Shown: positions 37,664-59,282, counted from the first letter of the stretch. The stretch: 64,000 nucleotides of DNA from Acidimicrobiia bacterium (GCA_030584185.1 CP129495.1:1789469-1853468); one strand, 5' to 3'. Notes: generated from the letters alone by a model not told the origin. Numbers and translations are program-made.

Positions 37664-37713
37664 GGCTCCATCCTCCCAAAGGTCGGAGCCTCCAAGAAAC
37701 CCGGGGAGGTTCA

Positions 37714-38818: not shown

Positions 38819-39001
38819 CCCTGTCTCCTTTCCTTGTTGATGGGGAAGGCGGCGACGCTATGAGGCGCCGGGCGTCTTCGGGTTGGTGACCGCGTCACTC
38901 TTGATGCGACGCGTGTCCTCGACCGAGGCTGAGTGGATGCGGCCCGGAGGCATCTGGAGGCGGTGGCCCGGTCTCGATGGTGGGCGTGTTCTGAGGGGCG
39001 G

Positions 39002-39601: not shown

Positions 39602-39607
39602 CGTTGA

Positions 39608-41814: not shown

Positions 41815-41850
41815 CGTCGACCTCGATTCCGATGCTGGTCTCATGTCACC

Positions 41851-41882
41851 AACGTACGCCTTCCAGTCGGCTGGAAGGTCAA
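41851..41882 (-). promoter_or_regulatory. MerR/CueR-type promoter: TTGACC-[19 bp incl. palindrome TTCCAGCCGACTGGAAGG]-GTACGTT
   Basis: 19-bp spacer with dyad; upstream of the ABC exporter. Confidence 0.6.
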
Positions 41883-41981
41883 TAGGGTCAAAGGTCCCGA
41901 TCGGTCAGGGCACCTGCCGGTGAGCGGAGGGCCCCGATCTGGCCGGGCGGGGGGAGGAGGGGCCAGATCGGGGCTGACGTT

Positions 41982-42224
41982 TCAGCGGCTCGGCCGACGC
42001 CTCACCTGGTCGATGAGCCGGTCGGTGGTGCGTGCGGTGTGTGCGTCGAGCCAGAAGGCGGCTCCGCACACTGCCAGACAGACCACGACCAGGGCACCGA
42101 TGGTGTATCCGGCGATGCGAGGGTCGAGGCGGTAGACGGCGACTATGGCGAGGACCATGAAGGCGACTCCGATCGCCGCCCACATCACCGGGCTGAACCG
42201 GCGGTGCTGCGAATCCGGGTTCAT
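41982..42224 (-). CDS. small membrane protein, hypothetical
   Basis: 2 TM helices; coupled to the cupredoxin gene. Confidence 0.4.
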   Translation of the reverse strand: MNPDSQHRRFSPVMWAAIGVAFMVLAIVAVYRLDPRIAGYTIGALVVVCLAVCGAAFWLDAHTARTTDRLIDQVRRRPSR

Positions 42225-42592
42225 GACACGACGACCTTGCCTCGAAGCATTCCCATCTGGCAGGCGAACTCGTATTCACCTGGCTCGGTGGGGGTGAACT
42301 CGATTGGGACGTTGGAGCCTTCGGGGAGGTCGGCGGAGACGCCGAAGGCGTCGAAGACGACCTTCTCCGAGCAGGGATCGGCCTCCTGGCGGTTGAAGAC
42401 CAGCTTGACCGGTCTGCCGGCTTCGACCCTGATGGTGTCGGGGGTATAACCGCCCTTGACGACGATGAACGCTTCCTGCTTGCCCCCGGCACCGACCGCA
42501 GCCGGCGCTCCTTGGGGTTTGGAGAGCCAGAAGTACCACACGATGAGCCCGATGAGGGCCAGACCGACCAGGTTGACGATGAGGACGGTCAT
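42221..42592 (-). CDS. cupredoxin-like copper-binding protein
   Basis: TM anchor; type-1 Cu ligands '...[10 protein letters not shown]'. Confidence 0.65.
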
Positions 42593-45063
42593 GCGGTTCC
42601 TCCTTTTCCACCAGACGGTTTCCAGCGGCGAAGCCGGTTGGCGTTGGAGACGACGGTGACCGAGGAGAAGGCCATCGCCGCCCCGGCGAGCATCGGGGAG
42701 AGCAGGATCCCGAAGAACGGGTAGAGAATCCCGGCGGCGACGGGGATACCGAGGGTGTTGTAGGCGAAGGCGCCCACCAGGTTCTGGTGGACGTTTCTGA
42801 TGGTTGCGTTGGACAGCTCGATGGCAGTGACGATCCCGCTGAGGCTGCCTTTGACCAGGGTGACGTCGCCGGATTCCATGGCGACGTCGGTGCCGGTGCC
42901 CATCGCCATCCCGACGTCGGCTTGGGCGAGGGCGGGGGCGTCGTTGATCCCGTCCCCGACCATGGCCACCTTCTTGCCTTCCGCTTGGAGCAGTCTGACC
43001 TGGGTTGCCTTGTCTTCGGGGAGGACCTCGGCGAGGACCCGGTCGATGCCGACCTGGCGGGCGATGGCTTCGGCGGTGCGTTGGTTGTCGCCGGTGATCA
43101 TCACCACCTGGAGGTCGAGTTCGTGGAGACGGCGGATGGCGGCGGCGGAGTCGTCTTTGACGGTGTCGGCGACGGCGATGGCTCCGGCCAGCTCGCCGTC
43201 GATACCGATGACCATGGCGGTCTTGCCTTCGTCGGCGAGTCGCGCCAGGGTCTCCTCTGAGGGGCCGGCGGCGATGCCGCGGTCGGCCATGAACTTCAGG
43301 TTGCCCAACACCACGTGCCGGCTGTTCACGGTGGCTTCGATGCCGTGGCCGGGAACCGCATCGAAGTCAGCGGCTTCGGCCACCTCGAGGTTCCGGGTTC
43401 GAGCGCCGGTGACGATCGCCTCACCGAGCGGGTGCTCAGAACCGGACTCGGCCGCCGCAGCGAGGGACAGCACCTCGCCTTCATCGAAGCCGTTGAAGGC
43501 GACGACGTCGGTGAGCGCCGGTTCACCCTTGGTGACGGTGCCGGTCTTGTCCAAAACCACGGTGTCTATCCGGTGGGCGGTTTCCAGGGCGTCGCCCGAC
43601 TTGATCAGGATCCCGTTCTCAGCTCCTTTGCCGATGCCGACCATGAGCGAGGTGGGAGTGGCCAGGCCGAGAGCGCATGGGCAGGCGATGACGAGGACGG
43701 TCACCGCGGTGATCACTGCATACACCAACGCCGGGGTCGGCCCGAAGGTGAACCACACCATGAAGGTGAGCACGGCGGCGATCATCACGGCTGGCACGAA
43801 GTAGGCGGCCACCTTGTCCACGGTCCGCTGGATCGGCGCCTTCGACCCTTGCGCGTCCCGCACCATTTCGATGATCTGGGCCAACATGGTGTCCCGACCC
43901 ACCCGGGTGGCTCGGAAACGGAAGAAGCCGGTCTTGTTGATGGTGGCGCCGATGACGGTGTCACCTTCGGACTTCTCCGACGGGATCGGTTCCCCGGTGA
44001 CCATCGACTCGTCCACCGCGGACACTCCGGAGACGACGATGCCGTCGACAGGGATCTTCTCCCCAGGCCGAACCACCACGATGTCGTCGACTGCGACCTG
44101 TTCGAAGGGGAGCTCCACTTCGGAGCCGTCGCGGAGCACCCGGGCGGTCTTTGCCTGGAGTCCGATGAGCTTCTTCAGCGCCTCCGAGGTGCGGGCCCGA
44201 GCCCGGATCTCCAGCGCCGATCCCAGGACGACGAAAGCGGTGACCACGGTGGTGACGTCGAAGAACACGTCACGCAGCTGCGCTTCGGGGAAGAACCCGG
44301 GGAACAACAACGCCACCGTCGAGTACAGCCACGCTGCGGAGATGCCGATGGCGATCAGCGTGTACATGTTCGCCGCCCGATGCTTGAAGGCGGCCCAGGC
44401 GCCAGTAAAGAACTGCGAACCGGAATAGATCATCACCGCCAGGGAGGCCACCGCCATCGCACCCCAGATCAGATCCAACTCGGACGACCCCTTCTCCGGC
44501 ACACCGGGGAAGATCTCCGGGTAGGAGAAGTAGATGATCGGCAGCGACACGATGGCGGCGAACCAGAACTTGCGGAGCAGACCGCGATACAGCCGCTCTC
44601 TCCCCTCCTGCTCGGCGTCGCCTGAATCGTCGGCGAGGGGGTGCGCCGAGTAGCCGGCCGCCGACACCGCTGTCATCAGAGCCTCAGAGGTGACCGGCCC
44701 TCCCACGTCGACGGTGGCCTCGTCGGTGGCCAGGTTGACCCGAGCGTCGACGACGCCGGGGACCGACGTCAGCGCCGACTCCACCCTGGAGACACAGGAG
44801 GCGCAGGTCATCCCCTCGACGCCGAGGCGTACCGTCGAAGTCGCCACTCCACCGGATCGGCCCGGCACCGCCAAGTGTTCGGCTTCTTCGTCGTCCTCGT
44901 CGCCCTCGCCGTCCGACGCTTCACCGCCGCCGGGGGTGGTGTAACGCTGCGGGTCGGCGAGGAAGCTCTGCCGGCAGTGCTCGGAACAGAACCCGAAGTC
45001 CGGGTACCCATCCACCCGTAGCGCGTCTGGTCCGACGGTCATCCCACATACCGGGTCTCGCAT
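42589..45063 (-). CDS. copA: copper-translocating P-type ATPase (CopA/CtpA-like) with N-terminal YHS/TRASH plus HMA domains
   Basis: 'DPVCGM' TRASH, '[12 protein letters not shown]' HMA, 'CPC' TM motif, [15 protein letters not shown]. Confidence 0.9.
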
Positions 45064-45101
45064 CTCGACTCCTTTCAGTAGCGGTGCCATGTCACAACAC
45101 C

Positions 45102-45133
45102 ACCGTACGCCTTCCAGTCGACTGGAATGTCAA
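45102..45133 (-). promoter_or_regulatory. MerR/CueR-type promoter-operator: TTGACA-[TTCCAGTCGACTGGAAGGC]-GTACGGT
   Basis: perfect 16-bp palindrome TTCCAGTCGACTGGAA between copA and the merR-family gene. Confidence 0.65.
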
Positions 45134-45152
45134 GGGGGGTAGAGTCAGGGAT

Positions 45153-45620
45153 ATGCAGATCGGAGAACTGGCGCGACGCACCGGTGTTCCCACCAAGACG
45201 ATCCGGTACTACGAGGAGATCGGTGTGCTCCCCGAACCCGAACGCGACCACAACGACTACCGGAACTACCCCGACGACGCGGTCGATCGGCTCGAGTTCA
45301 TCCGGGAGGCTCAGGCCACGGGGCTGACGCTCACCGAGATCGGCTCCATCCTCGACCTGCGTAGCCAGGGTGAAGCTACCTGCCGACACGTCGTCGACCT
45401 GTTGGAGCGCCACCTCGACGCCCTCGACCGCCACATCACCTCCCTGCGGCGGACTCGCCGCAAACTGGCGTCGCTCACCGAACGGGCCCGCAACCTCGAC
45501 CCGGCCGACTGTCGGGACCCGAACCGGTGCCAGACCATCTCTGGCGCCGATGTCGCCGAGCTGGGATCGGTGAAGACGGGACGCCACCTGCACGCCGCCC
45601 CATCCGGCCACCACCACTGA
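45153..45620 (+). CDS. MerR-family (CueR-like) transcriptional regulator
   Basis: 'MQIGELARRTGVPTKTIRYYEEIGVLPEPERDHNDYRNY' HTH; Cys-containing C-terminus. Confidence 0.8.
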   Translation: MQIGELARRTGVPTKTIRYYEEIGVLPEPERDHNDYRNYPDDAVDRLEFIREAQATGLTLTEIGSILDLRSQGEATCRHVVDLLERHLDALDRHITSLRRTRRKLASLTERARNLDPADCRDPNRCQTISGADVAELGSVKTGRHLHAAPSGHHH

Positions 45621-45630
45621 CCATGGAGGT

Positions 45631-46239
45631 TCAGGCTCCGGCGGCGGCGTCGAGCTCGGCGAGCAGCGCATCGGCGGGGACGAACATCTCGGCATAGTGC
45701 CGTACCCACGCCACTTCGCCGTTCTGGCGGACTAGGGCGAAGCTGTGGCTGGGCCGGTCGCCGTGCCCGTAGATCCCCATCATCCCGTAAGCGTCGGACA
45801 CGTCACGGTCGGAGTCGATGAGGATGGGACGGGTGATGCCGAAGCGGGCGGCTTCGGTGTCGACCGTCTGGGCCGGGTCGACCATGATCGGTACCAGGTT
45901 GATGCCGCGCTCGGCCAGCAACGGCTCCAGTTCGGGGATCTGGGCGAAACAACCGTCGCAGCCGACCCCCATCGAGAAGTACAAGAGGGCGTCACCTTGC
46001 GCCAGGGTCTGGTCAAGGGACACCGTGGACCCGTCGCTGGCGGCCAGTTGGAACGGTGGTGCTTGGCTGATGGTGGTTTCGTCGGTGGGGGTGAACGATC
46101 CGACGGTGACGACGGCGACGAGGACAGCGGGAACGGCGATGAATCCGATCCACTTCCACATCGAGCCGCGCCGCCGCTTACTGGCCTGGGCTCGCTGCGA
46201 TGTTCGCTTGTTCGTGGCCGGTTTCTTGGTGGTGGTCAT
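45631..46239 (-). CDS. thiol-disulfide oxidoreductase (redoxin/TlpA-like), secreted
   Basis: TM/signal anchor; thioredoxin fold with 'GCDGC'. Confidence 0.6.
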   Translation of the reverse strand: MTTTKKPATNKRTSQRAQASKRRRGSMWKWIGFIAVPAVLVAVVTVGSFTPTDETTISQAPPFQLAASDGSTVSLDQTLAQGDALLYFSMGVGCDGCFAQIPELEPLLAERGINLVPIMVDPAQTVDTEAARFGITRPILIDSDRDVSDAYGMMGIYGHGDRPSHSFALVRQNGEVAWVRHYAEMFVPADALLAELDAAAGA

Positions 46240-47131
46240 GGCAGGCAGGTTCTCCTTGTTGTTGAGATGCGGTGTGGTGTCGACGACGCACTGACAGGTA
46301 GATGGCCCCGGCGGCGACAGCGATGAGCAGCGCACCGATCACCGGGTCGGGGATCCATGCCAGACCGCTCACCAGTCCGGCCAGGCTGTCCTCGATGCGG
46401 GCCCCGACGCTGGCGGTGAAAGCGGGTGCCAGCGAGGAGCCGGTGACGGCGACGACGGCGAGCACGCCGGCCATGACGAGGAACATCAGGCCTGCCGCAG
46501 CGCCGGCGACGGTGGTGGCGACCCGGATCCGACCGATCCCGAACGACACCTTCCTCGATCCGAGCTGGGTCTTCTGCGGGCCGAGCCGGTCCCATGCCAC
46601 GGTGAGCACGACGAGGGGGAACACCATCCCGAACACGTAGGCGAGGCCGATGCCGACGCCGCCGATCAGGCCCGGGGAGATGGCGGACAGGGTGAGGACC
46701 CCGGCGAGGACCGGCGCACAGCACGCCGATGCGGCGCCGGAGAAGACACCGAGGGCGTAGACCCCGGCTGAGTCGGTGCGGGAGATGTCCGGTGAACCCT
46801 GCAAGAACGGCAACGACCAGTTCCGTCCGGTCAGAGAGAGCACCGCCAAACCCAACAAAAGGGCAGCTCCGATCCCGTACACCGCGGTATGGAACCGGAG
46901 CAGGCTCTCGGTGAGCAAACCGAGCCCGAGGGTCACCGGGACGAGGACGGTGGCCACCCCCGCAGCGAAGATGAACGTCAGCGGGACCAGACGCCACCGA
47001 TGGTTCCGCACCGCAGCGGCGAGGAACGACGGGAACATGACGACGATGCAACAGGGTGCGAACAGGGCGACCGCCCCGGCGACGAACGCCGCCAGCAGCG
47101 ACCCTCCGAGGAATAGCCCCTCCACGTTCAT
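46178..47131 (-). CDS. ccdA: cytochrome c biogenesis protein CcdA/DsbD transmembrane domain
   Basis: paired Cys in TM1 'FAPCC' and 'SACCAPV'. Confidence 0.75.
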   Translation of the reverse strand: MNVEGLFLGGSLLAAFVAGAVALFAPCCIVVMFPSFLAAAVRNHRWRLVPLTFIFAAGVATVLVPVTLGLGLLTESLLRFHTAVYGIGAALLLGLAVLSLTGRNWSLPFLQGSPDISRTDSAGVYALGVFSGAASACCAPVLAGVLTLSAISPGLIGGVGIGLAYVFGMVFPLVVLTVAWDRLGPQKTQLGSRKVSFGIGRIRVATTVAGAAAGLMFLVMAGVLAVVAVTGSSLAPAFTASVGARIEDSLAGLVSGLAWIPDPVIGALLIAVAAGAIYLSVRRRHHTASQQQGEPACHDHHQETGHEQANIAASPGQ

Positions 47132-47430
47132 CCCTCCCCGACCGAAGCGGCTCGTTGGGTGAGGCGACGCTCCAACTTCTTGAGGCTGATCCGACCGAAC
47201 CCGAAGAACTCGCCGTCGACGATGACGAGCGGCGGGAACCCTGCCCGGTGGGTCACCATGAGCGCCAGACCTTCGTCTGATGACAGGTCCACGGTGGTCA
47301 CCGCAAGCGGCACCGTTTCACCAAGCGTGTCGAGAACCTGTTGTGCGTGGTCGCAGTAGTGACAGCCGGCGGCGGTGACCACGACCACGCTGACCGGTTC
47401 GGATTCAGACACCAGCGGCGACTCCGGCAT
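47128..47430 (-). CDS. glutaredoxin/thioredoxin-like protein
   Basis: 'VVVTAAGCHYCD' CxxC. Confidence 0.6.
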   Translation of the reverse strand: MPESPLVSESEPVSVVVVTAAGCHYCDHAQQVLDTLGETVPLAVTTVDLSSDEGLALMVTHRAGFPPLVIVDGEFFGFGRISLKKLERRLTQRAASVGEG

Positions 47431-47734
47431 GCGTCGCCTCGTCGTGGCACCGATGTCCGGCTCGGCCGGAGGTCGGAGCGGACCCGAAGGTGGCGGCGAG
47501 CAGTTCGTCGACGACGTCGTCGACCCGGCCCTCAGCGACCGCTTCGGGGACGCAGCCTCGCAGGTGCGCTTCGAGGATCTGGCGGCGCACACTCTCGAGG
47601 GCGCCTTGCACCGCGGAGAGCTGGTGGAGCACGTCGATGCAGTAGCGGTCGTCGTCGACCATGCGGATCACCCCTTCGAGGTGACCGACGGCAGACCGGA
47701 GGCGGAACGCCACCGCGGTGGACTCCGCTCTCAT
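47405..47734 (-). CDS. csoR: CsoR/RcnR-family metal-sensing repressor
   Basis: 'RLRSAVGHLEGVIRMVDDDRYCIDVLHQLSAVQGALESV' with conserved Cys/His. Confidence 0.8.
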   Translation of the reverse strand: MRAESTAVAFRLRSAVGHLEGVIRMVDDDRYCIDVLHQLSAVQGALESVRRQILEAHLRGCVPEAVAEGRVDDVVDELLAATFGSAPTSGRAGHRCHDEATHAGVAAGV

Positions 47735-47967
47735 CGCCTTATCTCCGGATCTTCGACGAGCAGGGCGCGCCGGGCCTCGAACTCGTCACGGTCGATCTCG
47801 CCTGCGGCGAAGCGACGCTCCAAGATGTCGAGCGCACCAGAGCGGCTCTCCGAGGGGCGGGTCCTCGTGGAGCGGATCGCCCACACCGCCAGGGCGACGA
47901 CCGCACCCCAGAAGACGACCATCATCGTCCAACCGAAGAACCCCATCGTGTTCCAGTCACACCACAT
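47731..47967 (-). CDS. SHOCT-domain small membrane protein
   Basis: TM helix plus 'LDILERRFAAGEIDRDEFEARRALL'. Confidence 0.65.
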   Translation of the reverse strand: MWCDWNTMGFFGWTMMVVFWGAVVALAVWAIRSTRTRPSESRSGALDILERRFAAGEIDRDEFEARRALLVEDPEIRR

Positions 47968-48067
47968 GACGTATCACCTCGACGGGATCTTCCCCCACCC
48001 CGGGTGGGGTGGGCCAGGGTCGAAAGACCCTGGCCTGTGGGGCGTCCGGCACGACCCGGCGCGCCGG

Positions 48068-48559
48068 TCAGTCGTCGCTCGGGGTCTCCTGCCAGGTGAC
48101 CTGCCATTGGAACGCCCGTTCTTCGGGGCCCCACGTGGTCTTCAGGTACTCGACGATAGAGAGCACCTGCTCGACGCTGAGATCAGAGAACGTCGGCATC
48201 CGACTCTGCTCGAAGCCCGAACCGTTGCGGACGATGTCGACGAGCAGCCGGTCGGAGTGGTGCCAGGTGTGACCCGTCGAGTCGTGCGGCGGTGGCGGAT
48301 ATGACCCGTCCGGATTCGGGGTCTTCCAGTGGGGATCACCCGCCAGGTCGGCACCGTGGCAGGAGGCGCAGCGTTCGGCGTAGAGGACCTCTCCGACCGC
48401 GACACGGTCGCTGTCGAGGTCGGGCGGTGCCGGAGCGTTGCCGAGATCGCCGATCCTGGGCGGAGTCTGGCCGCTGCTGCTGGCAGCGTCCGAGCATGCC
48501 GAGCTCAGCGCCGCCAGCACGGCGATCAGGGCAACGCCCTTACGGAGCGCAGTCACGAC
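48068..48559 (-). CDS. c-type cytochrome lipoprotein
   Basis: lipobox 'ALSSACS'; heme motif 'CASCH'. Confidence 0.7.
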   Translation of the reverse strand, partial: VVTALRKGVALIAVLAALSSACSDAASSSGQTPPRIGDLGNAPAPPDLDSDRVAVGEVLYAERCASCHGADLAGDPHWKTPNPDGSYPPPPHDSTGHTWHHSDRLLVDIVRNGSGFEQSRMPTFSDLSVEQVLSIVEYLKTTWGPEERAFQWQVTWQETPSDD

Positions 48560-49050
48560 CCGACTGTGACCGTGCCCTTCATCCCGGCCGCGTAGTGACC
48601 TGGCTGGTGGCATCCGATGAGAACCGGCCCCTCCTCGGTGAATCGCCATGTCAGCTCTTTGGTTTCGCCGGCGGCGATGGCGACAGCGTTGGCCTCGTCG
48701 TCCATCATCATCCCGCCCATCTCCGCCATTTCCTCGTCGTGTTCGTCTTGAGTGGCTTGGTCTCCTAGCGTGAAGTCGTGGGGAACCTGGCCCGCGTTGA
48801 CGATCCTGAAGGTGATCGTCTCGCCGACGTCGACGGTCACGGCGTCCGGCGTGAACCGGAAGTCGTCGCTGGCGACGATCTCCACGACTCGGTCGGCGTC
48901 GCCGGCATCGGCCGGCTCCCCGAACCCGAACTCCATCGGATGGTCATCGCTGATTGTGGTGGTGGTGGCGGCCCCTGAATCGCTGCAGGCAGCCAGAAGT
49001 AATGCTGCTGCGACGGCGATCGGCGCAGCCTGACGAAGACTGAAAAACAT
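48553..49050 (-). CDS. cupredoxin (plastocyanin-like) copper-binding lipoprotein
   Basis: lipobox 'LLAACS'; type-1 Cu ligands 'VPHDF', 'IGCHQPGHYAAGM'. Confidence 0.75.
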   Translation of the reverse strand: MFFSLRQAAPIAVAAALLLAACSDSGAATTTTISDDHPMEFGFGEPADAGDADRVVEIVASDDFRFTPDAVTVDVGETITFRIVNAGQVPHDFTLGDQATQDEHDEEMAEMGGMMMDDEANAVAIAAGETKELTWRFTEEGPVLIGCHQPGHYAAGMKGTVTVGS

Positions 49051-49100
49051 GGGCGTCCTCCTGGACTCTCCGGTGAATGAACCGCGGGAGAAGGCCAGGC

Positions 49101-49445
49101 TCAGGTTCGAAGGACGCAGAGTTCGAAGAGTCGGAGCCTGCCCGACGAAACCCAGGCGGCGTCGATCGCTCCTGGGATCGTCGCGGACATCGCGGCTCGA
49201 GGGTGGTGTCGTGGCCGGGACCGGCGCCCGCCATCGACCATGGCGACGATGCTCATCACGAAGACACAAAGGCCGACCAGCCCGTGGATCCCCTCCGAAT
49301 CCACGGGCGAGGCGTTGTGATGCGCCGACCCGACGATATCGGCGGCGGCAGCGTCGAGTCCGTGCATGAGGACCACACCGGCGACGGCGAGGGCTGCCAG
49401 AAAGGTCGTCCACGCAAGGCGTCGCGGTTCGGTGATCGTCCTCAT
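49101..49445 (-). CDS. hypothetical membrane protein
   Basis: 2-3 TM helices; in the copper cluster. Confidence 0.4.
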   Translation of the reverse strand: MRTITEPRRLAWTTFLAALAVAGVVLMHGLDAAAADIVGSAHHNASPVDSEGIHGLVGLCVFVMSIVAMVDGGRRSRPRHHPRAAMSATIPGAIDAAWVSSGRLRLFELCVLRT

Positions 49446-49537
49446 CGCTTGGCGGCTCACTGTATCGACCGGCATAGGGCACCGCCATCGCCTGGCGACC
49501 AGTGCGGTCGGCTGTCCGACGGCCGGCAGCGACCGCG

Positions 49538-50650
49538 CTAGGACCGCTGCGGGCGCGATCCTTGAGGAACCGTCAGGACGAACGTCGAACCGTGCCCGAT
49601 GCCAGGGGAGGATGCAGTGACATCACCGCCTTGGAGACGGGCGAGGCTGCGGGCAATGGTGAGCCCGATCCCGGTGCCGCCGACGGCGGTGCGGTCGACC
49701 CGGTAGAAACGATCGAACACCAGCTCGAGCTGGTCCGCGGAGAGGCCGCGACCGGTGTCGCTCACCTCGATATGAGCGGTATCCGCCGCCCGAGCCGCCG
49801 TGATCCGGACTCGACCTCCCGGCGGGGTGTAGGTCAGGGCGTTGCCTACGAGGTTGGTCAACACCTGCGCCATCCTGTCCCGGTCCACCAACACCGGCAA
49901 TGACGGGCCCGCTTCGATGTCGAGGTGGACTTCCTGAGCATTGAACTGGGGGCGAAGCCGTTCGGCGGCGTCGCGGGCCAGCTGCGCCAGATCGGCTTCT
50001 TCGAGGTGGAGCTCGACCCGGCCTTCCTCGGCCCGGGACAGTGCCGAGAGGTCGTCGGCGAGTCGTTCCATGCGACGCGCTTCGCCGATGGCGGAGGCCA
50101 ACGTTTCGGTGTCGGGTTCGAACACGCCGTCGAGGAGACCCTCCAGGTAGCCCGTGAGTGTGGCCACCGGCGTGCGCAGTTCATGAGCCACCTCGGAGAC
50201 GAGGCGAAGGCGGCGCTGCTCGGTCGCCTCGAGGGCGGCGGCGAGCTCGTTGACGTCGCTGGCGAGCGCGGCGAGTTCCTCCTCCTCGGGCAAGGGGACC
50301 CGCTCGTGGTAGGAGCCGCCGGCGAGCCGTCGAGCCACGCGTCTCACGTCTTCCAGGGGCCGCAGCAGCCGCAGAGCGGCGAAGGTCGAGACGGCCACGG
50401 CCACCGCACCGCTGATGATGGCCGCCACCACCAGTGCCCGGTTGAACGCTGCGGTGATCCCCTCCTCGAGCTGGCCCGCTTCTGCTGCCGACATGCCACC
50501 CATCATGTGGTTCATGGAACGCAGGTGATCGTGGATGAAGACATCCCCGAGGCTGCGACCGGCGACGAGCAACACCACCACCCCAACCGCGACCACGGCC
50601 AGGTGTGAGAGGAGGAGCCGACTTCGAAGCGTGCCGAACGGTCGTCTCAT
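49538..50650 (-). CDS. sensor histidine kinase (CopS/CusS-like)
   Basis: H-box 'VAHELRTPVATL', N/G1/G2 boxes. Confidence 0.85.
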   Translation of the reverse strand: MRRPFGTLRSRLLLSHLAVVAVGVVVLLVAGRSLGDVFIHDHLRSMNHMMGGMSAAEAGQLEEGITAAFNRALVVAAIISGAVAVAVSTFAALRLLRPLEDVRRVARRLAGGSYHERVPLPEEEELAALASDVNELAAALEATEQRRLRLVSEVAHELRTPVATLTGYLEGLLDGVFEPDTETLASAIGEARRMERLADDLSALSRAEEGRVELHLEEADLAQLARDAAERLRPQFNAQEVHLDIEAGPSLPVLVDRDRMAQVLTNLVGNALTYTPPGGRVRITAARAADTAHIEVSDTGRGLSADQLELVFDRFYRVDRTAVGGTGIGLTIARSLARLQGGDVTASSPGIGHGSTFVLTVPQGSRPQRS

Positions 50651-51348
50651 CGTGGTTCTGCCACGAACTTGTATCCGACTCCGCGGACCGTAGCGATGAA
50701 CCGCGGGTTGGAGGCGTCGTCACTTAGCGCCTTGCGAAGGTTTCCGACGTGGACGTCGACCACGCGATCGGCTCCGAAGTAATCCCAGCCCCACACCCGC
50801 TCCAACAGCTGAGCACGAGTGAACACTCGTCCCGGCGCTGACGCCAGTGCGGCGAGGAGGTCGAACTCGAGGGTGCTCACCCCGACGGTCCCCGATTCGG
50901 TGACGACCTGGCGACCCGCCAGGTCGACGCTGATCCCGTCGAATTCCAGCACATCGGCAGCGCTGCGGGTCTGTCCGCCACGTCGCAGCACCGCACGGAT
51001 CCGTGCGACCAGCTCCCGGGGACTGAACGGCTTGGTGACGTAGTCGTCGGCGCCGATACTGAGACCCACGACGCGGTCCACCTCCTCGGTACGTGCGGTG
51101 AGCATGATCACTGGAACGTCGGAGTGGCGGCGGATCTCTTGGAGCACCTCGAATCCGTCGATGCCCGGCATGGCGACGTCGAGCACGACCAGATCAGGGG
51201 TCGAACCGCCCAATCGGGACAACGCATCGCGTCCATCGCTCGCCTCGACGACCTCGAAGCCCTCGGCTTGCAGATAGCGGCGAACCATCCGCCTCAGTTC
51301 AGGCTCGTCGTCGACAAGGAGAATCCGTCGCAGATCCACCTCAGCCAT
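50647..51348 (-). CDS. OmpR-family response regulator (CopR/CusR-like)
   Basis: receiver 'ILLVDDEP...VLDVAMPG' plus winged-helix 'TVRGVGYKF'. Confidence 0.9.
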   Translation of the reverse strand: MAEVDLRRILLVDDEPELRRMVRRYLQAEGFEVVEASDGRDALSRLGGSTPDLVVLDVAMPGIDGFEVLQEIRRHSDVPVIMLTARTEEVDRVVGLSIGADDYVTKPFSPRELVARIRAVLRRGGQTRSAADVLEFDGISVDLAGRQVVTESGTVGVSTLEFDLLAALASAPGRVFTRAQLLERVWGWDYFGADRVVDVHVGNLRKALSDDASNPRFIATVRGVGYKFVAEPR

Positions 51349-51396
51349 GGTAAAGAGGCACCCGGCCGGCACACGTGTCCGGCCGTCGCACGGCGA

Positions 51397-51714
51397 TCAC
51401 CTACCTGGCGATCCGCCCATCATCCCGTTGCCGCCCATCATGTTCCCTGAGCCCATCATGTTCCCTGAGCCCATCATCCCAAGGTGAGCCGACATCGAGC
51501 TGTGCATGGCCGATTGGTCCGCAGACGCCATCCAGTCATGGTGCTGCGCCGAACCCATCCCGTCGGCCATGTCGTCGTGCGGCATAACCGCGGAGTCGTG
51601 GTACGGGCATGCCACCTCCGGGCCGGGTTGCGGGTCTTGCGCCAAGGCCGGGACGGCAGCCAGGACGGCCACCCCGAGCGCAGCAGCGACCACAGCGATC
51701 GTGATTCGTTTCAT
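51397..51714 (-). CDS. secreted Met/His-rich copper-binding protein
   Basis: signal peptide; 'MGSGNMMGSGNMMGGNGMMGG'; 18-nt tandem DNA repeat at 51426-51470. Confidence 0.6.
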   Translation of the reverse strand: MKRITIAVVAAALGVAVLAAVPALAQDPQPGPEVACPYHDSAVMPHDDMADGMGSAQHHDWMASADQSAMHSSMSAHLGMMGSGNMMGSGNMMGGNGMMGGSPGR

Positions 51715-51740
51715 TATCAGTCCTTTCCCATCGCGCACCG

Positions 51741-51950
51741 TCATCGACCGGCCAGTTCTCTGCGGCGCGCAGTGAACTCGTCGGCGTCGACCTCGCCGCG
51801 GGCAAAGCGCTCTTCGAGGATGCTCAACGCGCTGGGTGGGCTCTGCGGTCGGTCGCTGCCCTCTCGCACAGCCCAGACCACGAGCAGGATCACTCCGACC
51901 CAGAACAACGCCATCCACAGAAATCCGAATCCTTCGAAACCCCACATCAT
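51741..51950 (-). CDS. SHOCT-domain small membrane protein
   Basis: TM helix plus 'LSILEERFARGEVDADEFTARRREL'. Confidence 0.65.
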   Translation of the reverse strand: MMWGFEGFGFLWMALFWVGVILLVVWAVREGSDRPQSPPSALSILEERFARGEVDADEFTARRRELAGR

Positions 51951-52064
51951 GGGGACTATCTCCTTTCCTTACCTGAGCACAGTCAACGACAGCGGCATCA
52001 AGGCTGGTTGCTCGCCCATATCAAGCTTCTGTGAAGATCACACACCCCTGTACCGGTCCGGGGC

Positions 52065-52097
52065 TTGACATTCCACCCGACTGGAAGGAGTAGAAGT
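52065..52097 (+). promoter_or_regulatory. MerR/CueR-type promoter: TTGACA-[TTCCACCCGACTGGAAGGA]-GTAGAAGT
   Basis: 19-bp spacer with imperfect dyad about 70 bp upstream of the second P-type ATPase. Confidence 0.6.
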
Positions 52098-52164
52098 CTC
52101 CTGAACAAGCAGGAGACGACCGGAGGAGTGAGTCGATGACCAATACAACAGGGAAGCGCCGCCG

Positions 52165-54513
52165 ATGACCCACACCCACACCCACACCCAGGAACGCCAC
52201 GACACGGTGGTCCTCCAGGTCGGAGGGATGCAGTTCGCTTCCGAGAAGAACAAGGTCGAGTCGTTCCTCGGCCGCATGAACGGGGTGGTCGCCGTCGACG
52301 CCAACCCGGTGGCGCAGACAGCGACGGTCACGTTCGATCCTTCTGTCGCGACCGCCGAGCAGCTGCGGGAGTGTGTCATCGAATGCGGATACCACTGCGC
52401 CGGCGAGTCGGTCCCCGCCCACGTCTGCTACGAGGAGGCGCCCCAGGCCCATCCCGGCGAGGAACGATCACCCCATGCGGTGATGGGCCACGGCAGCCAC
52501 GGCGAGATGTCGATGGACGCCATGGTCACCGACATGCGCAACCGCTTCCTGGTGGCGTTGCTCTTCACCATCCCCATCGTCTTGTACTCACCATTGGGAC
52601 GCGACACCCTCGGCTTCACTCTGGGCACCCCGTTCGGACTGCGCGACGACGTGTTCGCCCTGCTCCTCAGCCTTCCGGTGGTCTTCTGGGCGGGATGGAT
52701 CTTCTTCGACGGCGCTGCCGCCGCGCTGCGTCGTCGCACCCTCGACATGATGGTTCTCGTCGCCGTCGCCATCGGCGCCGGATGGCTCTACTCCCTGGCG
52801 GTCACCCTCACCGGAGGGGGCGAGGTGTTCTACGAGGCGGCGGCGATGCTCGCCGTGTTCGTCCTCCTCGGCCACTGGTTCGAGATGCGGGCCCGGGGCG
52901 GCGCCAACGACGCCATCCGAACCCTGATGAGCCTGGCACCACCAATGGCCCTCGTGATCCGCGACGGAGCCGAGGTCGAGATCCCGACTGCCGACGTCGT
53001 CGTGGGTGACCTGCTGTTGATCCGACCCGGTGCCCGCATCCCGGTTGACGGCGCTGTCGTCGAAGGCGAATCCGAGGTCGACGAGTCGATGGTCACCGGC
53101 GAGAGCCTCCCCGTGGCCAAACGTACCGGGAGCGAGGTGGTTGGCGCGACCATCAACACCACAGGCACCCTTCGAGTCGAAGCCACCCGGGTTGGTGCGG
53201 ACACCGCCCTCGCCCAGATCGTCGATCTCGTCCAGGAGGCACAGAACTCCAAAGCGCCCGGACAGCGCCTCGCCGACCGCGCCGCCTTCTGGCTCGTCCT
53301 CGTCGCCCTGCTCGGTGGTGCCCTCACCCTCGCCGGCTGGATGATCGCCGGCGAGGACTTCTCCACCGCGCTCCTGTTTGCCATCACCGTGGTGGTGATC
53401 ACCTGCCCAGACGCCCTCGGCCTGGCCACCCCCACCGCGGTCATGGTCGGGACCGGCATGGGCGCCCGCCGCGGGGTGCTGTTCAAGAACGCCACCGCCA
53501 TCGAGACCGCCGCCCGCATCGACACCGTGGTCATGGACAAGACCGGCACCCTCACCAAAGGCGAACCGGAGGTGACCGACTTCATCACCATCGGCCAACC
53601 ATCTGATGCGTTGCGGCTCGTCGCAGCAGTAGAACGAGAGTCGGAACACCCGCTCGCCCGGGCCGTCGTCCGCTACGCCGAAACCCAGGGCGTCGACGCC
53701 GCCGCGGCGGAACGTTTCGAAAACGTCCCCGGTCACGGTGCCATCGCCACCGTCGACGGACACCGAGTGGCGGTGGGCAACGTCCGGTTCATGGAGCGAG
53801 AAGGCGTCCACCTCGGCAGCCTCGGTACGAGCCGCGCGGAGATCGCCGCCGGTGGCCGCACCGCGGTGCTCGCCGCCGTCGACGGGGCGGCAGTCGCGGT
53901 GATCGGCCTCGCCGACGCGCCCCGGGACACGTCCGCTGAGGCGATTCGCGACCTCCACGATCTCGGTATCGAGGTGGTCATGCTCACCGGCGACAACCAG
54001 GCCACCGCCGACCGTATCGCCGCCCAGCTCGGCATCGACACCGTCATCGCCGAGGTCCTTCCCGAAGACAAGGCCGCGAAGATCAGCGAGCTCCAAGCCC
54101 AGGGCAAGACGGTGGCCATGGTCGGGGACGGAGTCAACGATGCACCGGCCCTGGCCACGGCCGACCTCGGTATCGCCATCGGAGCCGGGACCGACGTCGC
54201 CATCGAGACCGCCGACCTCGTCCTGATGAGATCCGACCCGCTCGATGTGCCCATCGCCATCCGTATCGGCCGAGGCACCCTGCGCAAGATGCGTCAGAAC
54301 CTGGGATGGGCCGTCGGTTACAACAGCCTGGCTCTTCCTATCGCCGCCGGCCTCCTCTACCCGTCCCTCGGTGTGGTGCTCCGACCCGAGTGGGCCGCCC
54401 TCTCCATGTCCGGCTCCAGCTTCCTCGTCGCCACCAACGCCGTACTCCTCAAACGACTCCGTCTCCCCAGCGAGGGAGACAGCGCGAAACCAACCAGTGG
54501 CGGCCCAACGTGA
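52165..54513 (+). CDS. copper P1B-type ATPase with His-rich N-terminus and atypical 'CPD' transmembrane motif (CopB-like)
   Basis: 'MTHTHTHTQ', HMA-like fold lacking CxxC ('[10 protein letters not shown]'), '[12 protein letters not shown]', [15 protein letters not shown]. Confidence 0.8.
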
Positions 54514-54617
54514 CGATCGGGCAGCCGACGACGAACACACGGCCGGTACTCTCGCCGACGGTGCCTAGCTTGCTCACTACGAGGACAGGGAGACGGCAAC
54601 CCGTGCGGACAAGCCGT

Positions 54618-54998
54618 ATGGCTGCTGTCGTCGTGCTGACGTTGTCCGTGGTGCTGGCGGCGTGTGGGGGCGACAGCTCAGAAGGAGGCATTCCGACCCA
54701 GGATCCCGACCTGGTGGCCGCCGGTGCCGACCTCTACGCCGCCAACTGCGCCGAATGCCACGGAACGGACCTGCGAGGCACCGACAAGGGCCCGTCACAT
54801 CTCTCCGAGGTGTACGAACCAAACCACCACGCCGACGGGGCCTTCCTCTTTGCCGTCCAGGCCGGTTCTCGCGCCCACCATTGGCGTTTCGGCGACATGC
54901 CCCCCGTCGAAGGGCTCTCCACCGAAGACGTCGAGGCCATCGTCGCCTTCGTCCGTGAACAGCAACGCATCGAAGGCTTCGAGCCATATCCACCCTGA
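54618..54998 (+). CDS. c-type cytochrome lipoprotein
   Basis: lipobox 'VLAACGG'; 'CAECH'. Confidence 0.7.
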   Translation: MAAVVVLTLSVVLAACGGDSSEGGIPTQDPDLVAAGADLYAANCAECHGTDLRGTDKGPSHLSEVYEPNHHADGAFLFAVQAGSRAHHWRFGDMPPVEGLSTEDVEAIVAFVREQQRIEGFEPYPP

Positions 54999-55034
54999 AC
55001 TCGCGGAGACGCCGCACCGAACCGCGACCCACGG

Positions 55035-55421
55035 TCAATGGGCCCGGCCCAGCTCCTTCGAGACTCCAAGCTGGATTGTGTTGAGATGGGTCAGCGCATT
55101 GGCGTACAGCGGCATCCGCAGCGGGGCACAACACCCCACCTGGAGGCGACCGATCGCCGCACCGACCTCCTCGGCGCCCCGCAGCGCCCGACCGAGCGAT
55201 CCCTGGTCCTCGGAGTCGAGGTCGCGACGAACCTCGATCAACGCCTGCTCGATGGCGGCCATGCGCGGACTGCGTTCGGGGTCACAGCACATCTTGTGCA
55301 AGCGGTCAACCACGGTCTGGCACTGGGCGATAGCCGATCGTGCGTCGACGAGCGCTGAATCTGACACGCTGCGAGGGTACGACACGCGGAGGCTCACCGG
55401 ATCGCAGGTTCCACTCGGCAT
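55035..55421 (-). CDS. hypothetical Cys-pair protein, possibly the frameshifted C-terminal part of a MerR-family gene
   Basis: overlaps the MerR-HTH ORF in another frame; contains 'CC' pairs. Confidence 0.35.
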   Translation of the reverse strand: MPSGTCDPVSLRVSYPRSVSDSALVDARSAIAQCQTVVDRLHKMCCDPERSPRMAAIEQALIEVRRDLDSEDQGSLGRALRGAEEVGAAIGRLQVGCCAPLRMPLYANALTHLNTIQLGVSKELGRAH

Positions 55422-55600
55422 CGCGGCAGGACGAGCTGCTCCATCGCGCGAGAGGGTGCGATGGGATGGTCAAGACGCGAGATGACGCGAACCAGGGCGG
55501 TCGGCTTCGGAACCACCACGCCCTCTTTCTCGTAGAAACGCAGCGCTGACACCGTGAACCCGGTGTCTCGGGCCGCTTCGGAGATCTTCAAACCATCCAT
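55394..55600 (-). CDS. MerR-family HTH fragment
   Basis: 'LKISEAARDTGFTVSALRFYEKEGVV' HTH only; no dimerisation or metal-binding region in frame. Confidence 0.45.
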   Translation of the reverse strand: MDGLKISEAARDTGFTVSALRFYEKEGVVVPKPTALVRVISRLDHPIAPSRAMEQLVLPRCRVEPAIR

Positions 55601-55635
55601 ACCAGCCACCCTAAACTCTCGACTCGGGTCGAAGG

Positions 55636-56391
55636 TCAAGTGGCTTTCTCAACGGTCGCCCATCGCCCAGGGCAGCAGTCACAGTCCCGCCAGATCCGCT
55701 GGGGCGGCTCACCAGCGAGCAGTCGGTCCGCCTCGTCTCGGACCAGTATCCCGATAAGTCTGCCCTGCGGTGTTGTGACGATCACATTGGGTGCGTTTCG
55801 TCGGTGCATGCGTTCCACCAGTGGCTGTAGCTGCTGGTCTGGTCGGACGGTGCTCGGACCGGGCTCCATCACCTCGACGGCCCGCATGTCTCCGTCGGTG
55901 TCGAGTTCTTTCCCGCGGATGCGGCCGACGGCCATCCCGTCACAGTCGAGGACCACACACACATCCCAGCCTGCGTCGACCACGGTGGATCTGATCTGAC
56001 CGATGGTGTCGTCGAGCTGGCAAGTGGGCACGTCGGATCGGGTGGCGTCGATGACACGCTGGCCGAGCTCCGCGTTGCCTTCGATAGCCAGTCCGGCTGC
56101 CTTCCAGTCTGCGATGCCATCCACATAGTCGAAAACCCGAAAGCCGATAGCTTCGAGCCGGCACGCGGCTCGTGGTGACATGTCTCACAATCCGTCGTGG
56201 CAGTAGACCACCACCGGTCGGGATATGTCGAGGACGCCTGCAGCCTTGGCGGTGAGCTGTTTCAACGGAATATTCACCGCATCAGGGAGGTGAGCCTCGG
56301 TGTAATCGGGTTCGGGGAGAACGTCGACGATCTGGGCGTCCTCAGCTTCGATGAGATCCAGCAGTTCGGTGCGGTCGATACCGGTGACCAT
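55636..56391 (-). pseudogene. rhodanese-CBS domain gene interrupted by an in-frame TGA (56185-56187)
   Basis: the two track ORFs are in the same frame and separated only by TGA-GAC; the stop falls inside the rhodanese active-site loop ('VVVYCHDGL*DMSPRAA'). Confidence 0.55.
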
Positions 56392-56394
56392 GGT

Positions 56395-56706
56395 TCAGCT
56401 CCTCTGTTCTGCGGAGGCGATGACGGCTCGTAGCTGGTCGAGGGACGGCGACCCGGCGTAACCGTCTTCGGTCTGATATACCCGACAGGCCAGCCCCACT
56501 GGCGCGTCGTCTTCGGAGAAGGCGTCGACGCCGTCGATGAGAACGGTGGGTGACCCGTGAAAGTTTCGGGCGACGGCCAGCTCGTGGGTGTCGATCAGCT
56601 CGTAGTCGATGGTGGCGTCCAACCCCTCGCCGACCAGGGTGTTGAGGTGTGCGGCTGTGGTCTTCCAGTTGGGACAGTCGTCGAAGTACTGGATCGTGAT
56701 CTCCAT
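56395..56706 (-). CDS. thioredoxin-like small protein (MerB-associated)
   Basis: 'IQYFDDCPNW' plus a second Cys; directly downstream of merB. Confidence 0.45.
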   Translation of the reverse strand: MEITIQYFDDCPNWKTTAAHLNTLVGEGLDATIDYELIDTHELAVARNFHGSPTVLIDGVDAFSEDDAPVGLACRVYQTEDGYAGSPSLDQLRAVIASAEQRS

Positions 56707-57380
56707 CAGCGTCGACCTCCGTCGACATCGTCCAGAATCGCTCCCATACGGAGACGGTTGGTGACCTGGCCCAGATGGAACGCCTCGTCAACGGTGACGT
56801 GAAACAGTCCCGGTCGGCCGTCGATCCACGGTTCGGCTGACTCGGGTGAGGCGAAGAAGTGGACCTTGTGGCAGAACCGTTGGATGGCGTCGTCGGTGAG
56901 ACCATCCTCGGGGAGCAGCAGCGAGACCACGACGTCGGGTGGGTCGATTCTGACCACTCCCTCGGGCGTGACGGTAAGACTGATCGGCGTTTCTTGGTGG
57001 GGGTCGGTGGAGTTGATCTCTGTCTGTCGGCCGAGGATCTCTGTGATGAACAGGGTGTCCCAGGCGCACCGGGCGTAGACCGTGGTCCCGTCCATTTCGA
57101 TAGCGTGGGTGGGCGCGATGTGGTTGGCGTGGATCCCCCAGAACCCGACCACACGATCCTGGTCGTCCCAGAGCACCAGCGGCCAGGAGTGGAGACTCTC
57201 CTCGACCCTGTCCGGAGAGACGCCGGTGGTGTCGGCGATCTGGGCGGCGGTCACCGGCTCTGCGTTGGCGGCTATCAGGTGATAGATCTGTAGAGCGATC
57301 CGCTGCTGATCGTGGTCCAGGCTCGGCGTCGCTGCGGCGAGTTGGTTGGCCCAGTCCTCGATCTTGGCGTCGATGGTCAT
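56706..57380 (-). CDS. merB: organomercurial lyase MerB
   Basis: catalytic triad context 'YARCAWD' (Cys...Asp) and 'RFCHKVHFF' (second Cys). Confidence 0.75.
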   Translation of the reverse strand: MTIDAKIEDWANQLAAATPSLDHDQQRIALQIYHLIAANAEPVTAAQIADTTGVSPDRVEESLHSWPLVLWDDQDRVVGFWGIHANHIAPTHAIEMDGTTVYARCAWDTLFITEILGRQTEINSTDPHQETPISLTVTPEGVVRIDPPDVVVSLLLPEDGLTDDAIQRFCHKVHFFASPESAEPWIDGRPGLFHVTVDEAFHLGQVTNRLRMGAILDDVDGGRR

Positions 57381-57411
57381 GTCTTCTCCTGGGTGGAACG
57401 GTTGTGACAGG

Positions 57412-57443
57412 AACGTACAGCTTCAAGTACGGTTGAAGGTCAA
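57412..57443 (-). promoter_or_regulatory. MerR-type promoter: TTGACC-[TTCAACCGTACTTGAAGCT]-GTACGTT
   Basis: 19-bp spacer with dyad CTTCAA/TTGAAG, between merB and the MerR-family gene. Confidence 0.55.
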
Positions 57444-57459
57444 GTGGTAATCTGGCCTC

Positions 57460-57861
57460 ATGCAGATAGGTGAAGTCGCCCAAAAGATCGGTATGGCCAC
57501 TTCGGCGATCCGCTTCTACGAAGAGAAAGGTCTCATCCCTGAACCGGATCGCACCGATTCCGGCTATCGGGACTATGACCCGGCAGTAGTGGACCGGATC
57601 CGCTTCATCCGAGCCGGTCAGACAGTCGGTCTCACTCTCCGCGAACTGAACCAGGTTCTGCAGATCCGAGACCGAGGCGAGTCGCCTTGTCGACATGTCG
57701 CAGACTTGTTGGACACCAGAATTCACGACGTTGACCAGCGGATCGAAGAGCTTCGACGTCTGCGGCGCGACTTGACCGCCATGCGACGAAGCGCCAGCCG
57801 CCTCGACCCGGCCGACTGTCCACCCGAGGGCGTTTGTCGGATCGTCACTGAGACCGGGTGA
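57460..57861 (+). CDS. merR: MerR-family transcriptional regulator
   Basis: 'MQIGEVAQKIGMATSAIRFYEEKGLIPEPDRTDSGYRDY'; C-terminal Cys residues. Confidence 0.8.
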   Translation: MQIGEVAQKIGMATSAIRFYEEKGLIPEPDRTDSGYRDYDPAVVDRIRFIRAGQTVGLTLRELNQVLQIRDRGESPCRHVADLLDTRIHDVDQRIEELRRLRRDLTAMRRSASRLDPADCPPEGVCRIVTETG

Positions 57862-58082
57862 TCGGGACGCGCCGAGAACGAGAAGGATGCACCCGTGATC
57901 CCGTTCGCCGGCGGGCGAAGGCGGCATAGTGATGACAACGAGATTCTCGGTATCACCGGAACCCTGTTCGACGGCCTCTACGCCTGGCTGCACCGACGGC
58001 ACGGGTGACAGACACGCTTGATTGACAAATGCGAGCCGGTGGCAACTTCTCTGCGCCATTGGCCGTAGTTACCGTCCGTCTC

Positions 58083-59100: not shown

Positions 59101-59282
59101 GGTTCCATCGCACATCCATCGCACAAGAGAGTGCGATGGGACCGTCAAGAACGCGAAATGACGCGAAGCGAAAATGCCGTCTGAACAGGCGTTTCGCGGA
59201 TTTGCCCTGGTCAGTGGACACCCCGGACTCGGGCTCATAACCCGAAGGTCGCGGGTTCAAATCCCGCCCCCGCTACTACCGA
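59101..59282. repeat. ~130-nt island-boundary repeat (copy 3) plus 46-nt tRNA-Met 3' fragment (59231-59276)
   Basis: 59231-59276 is identical to tRNA positions 26990-27035; upstream part about 80% identical to 30781-30910. Confidence 0.8.

Follow-up and report, generated by a model that had tools for sequence, protein, structure and literature searches.

Within a stretch of 64,000 nucleotides from the genome of an Acidimicrobiia bacterium (GCA_030584185.1, CP129495.1:1789469-1853468), referred to here as the window, copper- and mercury-related genes lie side by side with four promoter-like sites of similar architecture (S1 to S4) and the genes of two MerR-family regulators (R1 and R2). This arrangement raises the question of whether the four sites answer to one common operator or to separate switches. 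An earlier note on this DNA had described them as copies of one MerR/CueR-type promoter and had deduced from a shared operator that copper and organomercury genes are cross-regulated. As judged from the sequences analyzed in this study, the locus is more likely to harbor two insulated MerR-type switches, with R1 predicted to control a copper regulon (S1 to S3) and R2 a mercury module (S4).

All four sites were recovered where the earlier note had placed them (Table 1). A degenerate search pattern spanning the -35 element and the dyad, TTGACNTTCNANNNNNNTNGAAG, yielded four exact matches and one match with two mismatches in the 64 kb, where shuffled sequences predict 0.13 matches; none of 100 shuffles attained five. 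Furthermore, weight matrices built from foreign loci only picked out exactly S1 to S4, with scores of 33-61 bits. No other position of the window reached at least 8 bits on these matrices, and zero matches above 0 bits were obtained in 30 randomised windows. From these sequence features, S1 to S4 are classified as genuine MerR-type metal-switch promoters, to which the regulators would be expected to bind.

The promoter chassis is composed of the -35 element TTGAC(A/C), a 20-bp spacer and a -10 element, which was read in its actinobacterial form TANNNT (TACGTT or TACGGT, TAGGGT in S5, a degenerate fifth copy, and the poor TAGAAG in S3). Read in this way, the spacer measures 20 bp in every copy and not 19 bp as formerly stated, and the same over-long spacer followed by TANNNT was observed in approximately 60 orthologous promoters. 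Within the spacer resides a dyad of even length, a 20-bp palindrome that is perfect in S1 (8-4-8), near-perfect in S2 to S4 and placed in identical register. Its centre lies between positions 14 and 15 of the 32-mer, corresponding to 8 bp past TTGACN, in five of five window sites as well as in the orthologues. The long spacer and the dyad inside it support the earlier assignment of S1 to S4 to the activator-type promoters of the MerR family, for which spacers of 19-20 bp are known, ZntR representing the 20-bp case (PMC3431237).

Ordinary sigma-70-type promoters with a 16-18-nt spacer were not found in a scan of positions 41000-58500. Since a spacer of 20 bp is too long for unaided RNA polymerase, constitutive activity of the sites is unlikely. 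Regarding the factor that reads them, genes for a CsoR (47405-47734) and for a histidine kinase/response regulator pair (49538-51372) resembling CopRS are likewise present on the island, and their products might serve the sites in place of MerR-type proteins; alternatively, the sites might merely be duplicated promoter copies without any regulator, since only 3 of 32 positions distinguish S1 from S2, a similarity that a recent duplication could account for. Both ideas are regarded as very improbable. The G/C-tract inverted repeat typical of CsoR operators is located upstream of the csoR operon and not at S1 to S4, a dyad within an over-long spacer is a MerR signature (PMC3431237, PMC5045206), and the dyad tracks the MerR-type helix over 160 loci. 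Moreover, the 20-bp spacer and the absence of a standard promoter from the region scanned argue against regulator-free copies.

Regulators and operators were compared across these 160 Acidimicrobiia loci (denoted by L numbers), comprising 80 loci of R1 relatives from species-representative genomes and 80 loci of R2 relatives from metagenomes. In nearly all of them, the stretch immediately 5' of the regulator gene contains this chassis in opposite orientation; co-variation was counted over 105 non-redundant regulator/operator pairs in which an operator could be detected. Lys15-type regulators, with the helix x-T-K-x-I-R-Y/F-Y-E, pair with TTCC(A/T/C) half-sites (TTCC(A)G...CTGGAA dyads), for the most part ahead of copA-type ATPase genes, and those with Ser15 in the helix A-T/P-S-A-I/V-R-F/Y-Y-E pair with TTCAA...TTGAA half-sites ahead of merB, merA or a DF-family gene. 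The base following TTC in the two half-sites is C or T in all 67 cases with Lys15 (C/C in 51, C/T in 10, T/C in five and T/T in one) and never A; with Ser15 it is A/A in 38 of 38 cases.

The foreign-built matrices were scored on the full 32-mer and subsequently on the dyad alone, which excludes the shared promoter elements (Table 1). Based on the dyad-only scores, each of S1 to S4 is recognized by the matrix of its own class only, so that the four sites have the chassis in common and not the operator. Common to all of them are the -35 element, the 20-bp spacing, the -10 element and the outer TTC/GAA bases of the dyad. What had been described as a single dyad with a variant therefore represents two distinct operator classes, one comprising S1 to S3 and the other S4.

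A single operator type, on which one or both MerR paralogues would act at all four sites and thereby cross-regulate copper and organomercury genes, is in keeping with these shared elements as well as with the regulators themselves, which are 46% identical and show the same Cys pattern. Furthermore, the full-length matrices still assign 21.8 bits to S4 on R1 and 26.4 bits to S1 on R2. However, these residual scores stem from the promoter elements: on the dyad alone, S4 drops to -2.0 bits on R1, and S1 to S3 are left with about 7 bits on R2. In addition, TTCCA and TTCAA never occur with the wrong helix type among the 105 pairs, and zero R2-class sites were detected in the 80 R1 loci, as were zero R1-class sites in the close R2 loci L081-L116. 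The cross-regulation deduced from a shared operator is accordingly considered quite unlikely.

Two groups of loci depart from the common arrangement. The regulators of L121-L160 (metagenome loci) form a sister clade of R2; they combine a metal loop similar to that of R2 (CPPERVCH) with Lys15 and TTCC-type operators, and many are located upstream of genes for distant MerB-like proteins. Metal loop and DNA specificity thus appear to evolve independently. In L032-L059 (Candidatus Poriferisodalis and relatives), the regulator gene and copA are co-oriented, the regulator coming first, with an R1-class site in between, and a compressed dyad, CCTTCC-GGCT-GGAAGG, whose half-sites are 4 bp closer, is located upstream of the regulator.

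Table 1. Promoter sites, regulators, transcription units and further features of the window, with matrix scores (R1/R2, in bits) of the sites.
Feature	Coordinates	Strand	Description	32-mer score R1/R2	Dyad-only score R1/R2
S1	41882..41851	-	R1-class MerR-type promoter, TTGACCTTCCAGCCGACTGGAAGGCGTACGTT in promoter orientation; TTGACC, 20-bp spacer, TACGTT	51.6/26.4	29.6/6.6
S2	45133..45102	-	R1-class MerR-type promoter of copA1, TTGACATTCCAGTCGACTGGAAGGCGTACGGT in promoter orientation	56.0/20.3	33.1/7.4
S3	52065..52096	+	R1-class MerR-type promoter, TTGACATTCCACCCGACTGGAAGGAGTAGAAG; weak -10 TAGAAG, leader ~65 nt	33.2/8.4	27.0/7.3
S4	57443..57412	-	R2-class MerR-type promoter of merB, TTGACCTTCAACCGTACTTGAAGCTGTACGTT; TTGACC, 20-bp spacer, TACGTT	21.8/61.0	-2.0/33.0
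S5	55639..55608	-	Fifth chassis copy, degenerate, TTGACCTTCGACCCGAGTCGAGAGTTTAGGGT; TTGACC, 20-bp spacer, TAGGGT, 7 nt to ATG 55600		-6.0/-6.7
R1	45153..45620	+	HMRTR-type MerR-family regulator, 155 aa; helix PTKTIRYYE (Lys15), Cys77, C120-X5-C126, His-rich tail		
R2	57460..57861	+	HMRTR-type MerR-family regulator, 133 aa; helix ATSAIRFYE (Ser15), Cys77, C120-X5-C126		
S1 operon	39608..41844	-	ABC ATPase 41098-41844 (Pfam ABC_tran), ABC-2 permease 39608-41101 (ABC2_membrane_3); gene calls also in L165		
Hairpin	41931..41974	-	GC-rich, strong; directly 3' of the stop of the 80-aa open reading frame, ~45 nt upstream of S1; conserved in L165		
S2 operon	41982..45090	-	CopA1 42589-45090, cupredoxin 42221-42592, 80-aa membrane open reading frame 41982-42224		
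S3 operon	52165..54998	+	CopB-like P1B ATPase 'CopA2' 52165-54513; lipoprotein cytochrome c ~54510/54603-54998 (CAECH)		
S4 operon	55636..57380	-	merB 56706-57380, DF-family thioredoxin-like 56395-56706, rhodanese 56185-56391, CBS-domain protein 55636-56181		
Helix-turn-helix open reading frame and Cys-pair gene	55038..55600	-	69-aa open reading frame 55394-55600, then ~110-aa protein 55038-55367 with two Cys-Cys pairs (MCC, GCC)		

Both regulators match the Pfam models PF13411, PF00376 and PF09278 (MerR helix-turn-helix (HTH) and MerR-DNA-bind), representing a winged HTH followed by a coiled coil, and their lengths of 155 and 133 aa lie in the range of approximately 130-160 aa of the HMRTR subfamily. 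R1 reached 90.1 and 66.1 bits against the CueR models TIGR02044 (cut-off 147.4) and NF007590 (cut-off 244), and R2 reached 98.3 and 61.3 bits against the MerR models TIGR02051 (cut-off 150.85) and NF010315 (cut-off 261). The curated NCBIfam cut-offs for CueR, MerR, CadR-PbrR and ZntR were attained by neither protein. CueR features Ser77 and a metal loop with Cys112 and Cys120 (structure 1q05), whereas R1 is devoid of a Cys at the equivalent of position 112 and has its metal-loop Cys residues at 120 and 126. The metal-binding residues of MerR are Cys79/114/123 in the Bacillus protein and Cys82/117/126 in that of Tn501; the invariant Cys residues of R2 are 77, 120 and 126, the latter two forming a C-X5-C and not a C-X8-C loop. 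By curated model, R1 and R2 are thus neither CueR nor classical MerR, and the Cys patterns likewise appear to set them apart; they probably belong to the actinobacterial HMRTR branch of the MerR family, which has been described before. NCBI lists relatives under the name 'heavy metal-responsive transcriptional regulator'. Among solved structures, Bacillus MerR (4ua1) is nearest to R1 in sequence, ahead of CadR and, in third place, CueR. A protein of an Acidimicrobiia metagenome-assembled genome with locus tags QY307_ matches R2 at 100% identity.

In agreement with the two MerR-family regulators reported earlier, full-length R1 is encoded divergently to S2 and full-length R2 divergently to S4. 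The promoter of R1 itself, the -10 element of which (TAGAGT, 45140-45145) is followed after 7 nt by the ATG at 45153, overlaps S2 divergently; that of R2, with TAATCT (57448-57453) followed after 6 nt by the ATG at 57460, overlaps S4 in the same manner. The S2/R1 layout recurs in L001-L031. In both cases, the -10 element of the regulator lies just beyond the -35 element of the target, which corresponds to the classical overlapping PmerR/PmerT layout, and divergent merR genes have also been described for actinobacterial mer operons (PMC3466566). The overlap suggests that the regulator mRNAs are leaderless and that R1 and R2 repress their own synthesis.

By analogy to MerR, CueR and ZntR, a dimer of R1 or R2 on the dyad would hold the promoter closed in the absence of metal, and the metal-bound regulator would under-twist the 20-bp spacer and thereby align the -35 with the -10 element. 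R1, by means of Lys15, is predicted to read CCTTCCAG-N4-CTGGAAGG and, with Cu(I)/Ag(I) as the probable signal, would turn on S1 (ABC-2 exporter), S2 (copA1, cupredoxin and the 80-aa open reading frame) and S3 (CopB-like ATPase and cytochrome c). R2, featuring Ser15, would read CTTCAA-N6-TTGAAG and turn on S4 (merB and the DF-family, rhodanese and CBS genes), probably in response to Hg(II). Bound R1 or R2 would at the same time repress its own divergent promoter. The metals are assigned from gene context, R1 being a presumed Cu(I) sensor and R2 a presumed Hg(II) sensor.

The genes downstream of the four sites had been named correctly before, namely those for the ABC-2 exporter at S1, for CopA and the cupredoxin at S2, for a second copper ATPase and cytochrome c at S3, and for MerB at S4. 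At S1, the ATG of the ABC ATPase at 41844 is positioned 6 nt past the -10 element, and the mRNA of this transporter is probably leaderless. The hairpin upstream of S1 (14-bp stem, -40.5 kcal/mol, z = -5.5; 0 of 200 shuffles folded equally well) probably represents the terminator of the copA1 operon, and S1 would therefore be an independent promoter belonging to the ABC operon itself. ABC ATPase orthologues (60-80% identity) follow copA-cupredoxin in nine other R1 loci. The exporter is a conserved neighbour of copA, and S1, its private promoter, is limited to this island lineage.

CopA1 of the S2 operon features the motifs CPC, YN and MxxSS, an HMA domain with CxxC and a YHS domain. Elsewhere, genes for CopA-type ATPases are preceded by R1-class sites 46 times, often with the start codon 6 nt past the -10 element. 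Three R1-class sites each are present in L003, L025 and L029, and several loci possess two or three, showing that a multi-promoter copper regulon is typical of R1-class loci. CopA2, encoded downstream of S3, has CPD in place of CPC/CPH in its transmembrane metal site, an HMA-like domain without CxxC and a His-rich N-terminus (MTHTHTHT). CPD is also present in three CopA2 orthologues at an identity of at least 60%, more distant relatives having CPH (CopB-like), and the orthologues in L011 and L025 likewise possess R1-class sites. The ABC-2 exporter and the CPD-motif CopB-like ATPase are now placed in the predicted copper regulon.

Within the S3 leader, an upstream open reading frame of 10 codons (52137-52169, +) ends in an ATGA overlap with the CopA2 start codon; in L165, the reading frame is kept and the peptide is not. 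An 8-6-8 perfect inverted repeat at 52096-52117 (+), straddling the predicted S3 transcription start, was considered as a second operator and dismissed, being disrupted in the 93%-identical L165 and absent from L011 and L025.

The copper module was also identified on a 17.7-kb contig (L165) from an unrelated sequencing run (Logan SRR29564167), which carries a 92.9%-identical copy of window positions 37714-55294, extending from the integrase to the cytochrome c gene. S1, S2 and S3 are each identical at 32 of 32 positions in this copy, while the flanking intergenic bases vary. Its occurrence in an unrelated run implies that the copper module circulates as a unit.

Regarding the mercury module, R2-class sites precede genes for MerB (12 cases), DF-family proteins (12 cases) and MerA (L093, L095, L101 and L103) in other loci. 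MerB, MerA or DF-family genes are divergent to the regulator in the close R2 loci L081-L116, in which sites identical or near-identical to S4 are present, and the gene order merB-DF-rhodanese-CBS recurs in approximately 10 R2 loci. The MerA proteins of the four loci named above feature the NmerA motif GMTCDHC, the redox-active motif GGTCVNIGCVPSK and a C-terminal LSCCAA with the CC pair.

Several observations weigh against two insulated switches for copper and mercury. The model is based on comparative genomics of uncultured genomes. In a neighbour-joining tree, all Ser15 proteins form one clade, the sister of which is a Lys15 clade with TTCC operators; because the Lys/Ser split falls on a single branch, the co-variation counts as one event, maintained since then down to approximately 50% protein identity. 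Such a single origin limits the statistical weight of the co-variation, not its consistency. Moreover, the two operators differ in a few bases, and weak cross-binding may hence occur. The -10 element of S3 is poor, and in the nine syntenic loci an R1-class site in front of the ABC ATPase was found in L004 only, in a degenerate form scoring 15 bits. Among characterised MerR-family sensors, Cys at position 77 marks sensors of divalent metals and CueR has Ser77; R1, the presumed Cu(I) sensor, features Cys77. Furthermore, a gene for a CDF-family cation exporter (58029-59240, +) directly follows R2, a pairing that is also present in L081-L083 and L161, and CDF proteins are usually associated with Zn, Cd and Co, not with Hg. 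Finally, merA, merT and merP were not found in the 64-kb window.

The CDF transporter and the lack of merA in the window would fit R2 as a divalent-metal sensor of the Zn/Cd/Pb type, with merB-DF-rhodanese-CBS as a general thiol/metal-stress module under the same promoter architecture. In line with this, relatives carry the JGI name 'Zn(II)-responsive regulator of zntA', and the best NCBIfam score of R2 was obtained for CadR-PbrR (113 bits, compared to 98 bits for MerR, both below the cut-offs). On the other hand, orthologues of the same clade with the same operator are directly divergent to bona fide merA (CVNIGCVPSK, C-terminal CC pair, NmerA) and to merB, and MerB of the window retains its catalytic Cys/Asp residues in the C-x-x-D and second Cys motifs. 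A divalent-metal sensor of this kind is therefore deemed unlikely, and R2 as a mercury switch separate from the copper switch R1 is retained as the preferred interpretation.

As a tentative extension of this interpretation, the exchange of Lys15 for Ser15 (together with Ala13) and of C:G for A:T in the inner dyad may constitute a one-residue/one-base-pair code that insulates the mercury HMRTR paralogue from the copper one on a reused chassis within a single mobile island. If this code holds, K15S and S15K exchanges with the matching operator swap should re-wire both regulons, and a ready route to orthogonal MerR-type biosensors would be available. The Lys-to-C recognition rule would thereby be extended by a Ser-to-A variant, which could explain how paralogues avoid cross-talk. 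A literature search for direct contacts of CueR Lys15 with DNA yielded nothing useful. Beyond the code, the results provide a testable regulatory map of a mobile copper/mercury island in uncultured Acidimicrobiia, in which three copper promoters are assigned to one regulator and one mercury promoter to the other.

The fifth chassis copy, S5, corresponds to the pattern match with two mismatches, and its dyad TTCGAC..GTCGAG fits neither operator class. The 69-aa open reading frame behind it matches other regulators over only about 33 residues, representing the first part of the MerR-type HTH, and the region 55038-55600 probably contains a regulator remnant and an unrelated small gene. It was also considered that 55394-55600 is part of a frameshifted full-length third regulator fused to the downstream open reading frame; this was rejected, as the Cys-pair protein has homologues encoded on their own, with neither an HTH nor a MerR-type promoter.

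Further genes associated with metal sensing and mobility surround these features. A CsoR-family repressor and a SHOCT gene (47405-47967, -) are located behind the G/C-tract inverted repeat CCCCACC-CGG-GGTGGGG at approximately 47990-48015; the CsoR box TACCC-N-GGGTA had zero matches in the window, and the G/C-tract repeat upstream of csoR is the better candidate. Together with R1, this CsoR and the CopRS-like histidine kinase and response regulator (49538-51372, -) would represent three different copper-sensing systems side by side. Further to the left, the G+C content drops after a tRNA-Met gene, the features of this region being located at 26961-27037, 29217-30721, 31997-33964 and 36429-38818. 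Two IS3-type transposase copies (303-aa integrase-core open reading frames with identical Pfam scores) flank a third P-type ATPase without HMA domain and a YnfA gene, and a tyrosine integrase gene comes next. The whole region looks like an integrated composite metal-resistance element. On the right-hand side of the metal genes, an AbiEi/AbiEii toxin-antitoxin pair is encoded (59719-61172, -). A near-identity plasmid search with positions 41000-46000 returned only distant P-type ATPase matches and no source.

Compared to known systems, the mechanism proposed here is not new, since its promoter type and regulator subfamily, as well as the principal protein-DNA correlation, are known from earlier work; only the Ser15/TTCAA pairing is a mildly new element. 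The HMRTR subfamily including its actinobacterial branch is already defined (CDD HTH_HMRTR; PMC5045206). Motifs of MerR/HMRTR are of even length and centred 8 bp from the -35 element, in contrast to the 21 bp and 7 bp of CueR/CadR (PMC5045206). The strongest protein-DNA correlation of the family, listed for 'CueR, HMRTR (Actinobacteria)', links a Lys of the recognition helix to C, with G on the mirror half (PMC5045206). R1 and its sites fit this description exactly with respect to fold, even motif, 8-bp centre and Lys-C pairing; residue 15 of this study presumably equals alignment position 14 of PMC5045206, as deduced via CueR numbering. The R2 clade differs in having Ser and A/T at the paired position, a combination outside the table of PMC5045206, and the hosts considered here are uncultured Acidimicrobiia.

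Like CueR and PcopA of Escherichia coli (TTGACCTTCCCCTTGCTGGAAGGTTTAACCT, verified in 5418 E. coli genomes), the copper switch is predicted to combine a Cu(I)-responsive MerR-type activator with a CopA ATPase as its target. Lys15 of helix alpha-2 and the CCTTCC/GGAAGG core of the half-sites are also common to both. PcopA has an odd 21-bp dyad and a 19-bp spacer, whereas the window features an even 20-bp dyad and a 20-bp spacer, and R1 differs from CueR by Cys77 in place of Ser77, the missing Cys112 equivalent and C120-X5-C126. From the former 'CueR-type' label, the resemblance of the half-site to the CueR core CCTTCC can thus be retained; the even dyad, its 8-bp centre, the spacer, the Cys residues and a score below the CueR cut-off speak against it, and the geometry and the regulator features agree with the HMRTR/MerR type instead (PMC5045206). 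The system of the window would thus work like CueR/copA without being a CueR.

The classical systems of Tn501/Tn21 and of Bacillus MerR (4ua1) resemble the window in the divergent regulator and target sharing an operator, the dyad in an over-long spacer, the three Cys residues per monomer including the Cys79 equivalent, and the association with merA/merB. They differ in the 19-bp spacer and the C-X8-C loop, as opposed to a 20-bp spacer, another operator sequence and C-X5-C in the window. Finally, in Salmonella the paralogues CueR and GolS reportedly discriminate between their operators through a residue of the recognition helix and a difference of one or two bases in the dyad, a finding that Perez Audero et al. 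are said to have made in 2010. That case would likewise comprise two MerR paralogues in one genome with near-identical promoters and small operator and helix differences; there, the metals are reportedly Cu and Au instead of the Cu and Hg proposed here, and the positions of the residue and bases are said to differ.

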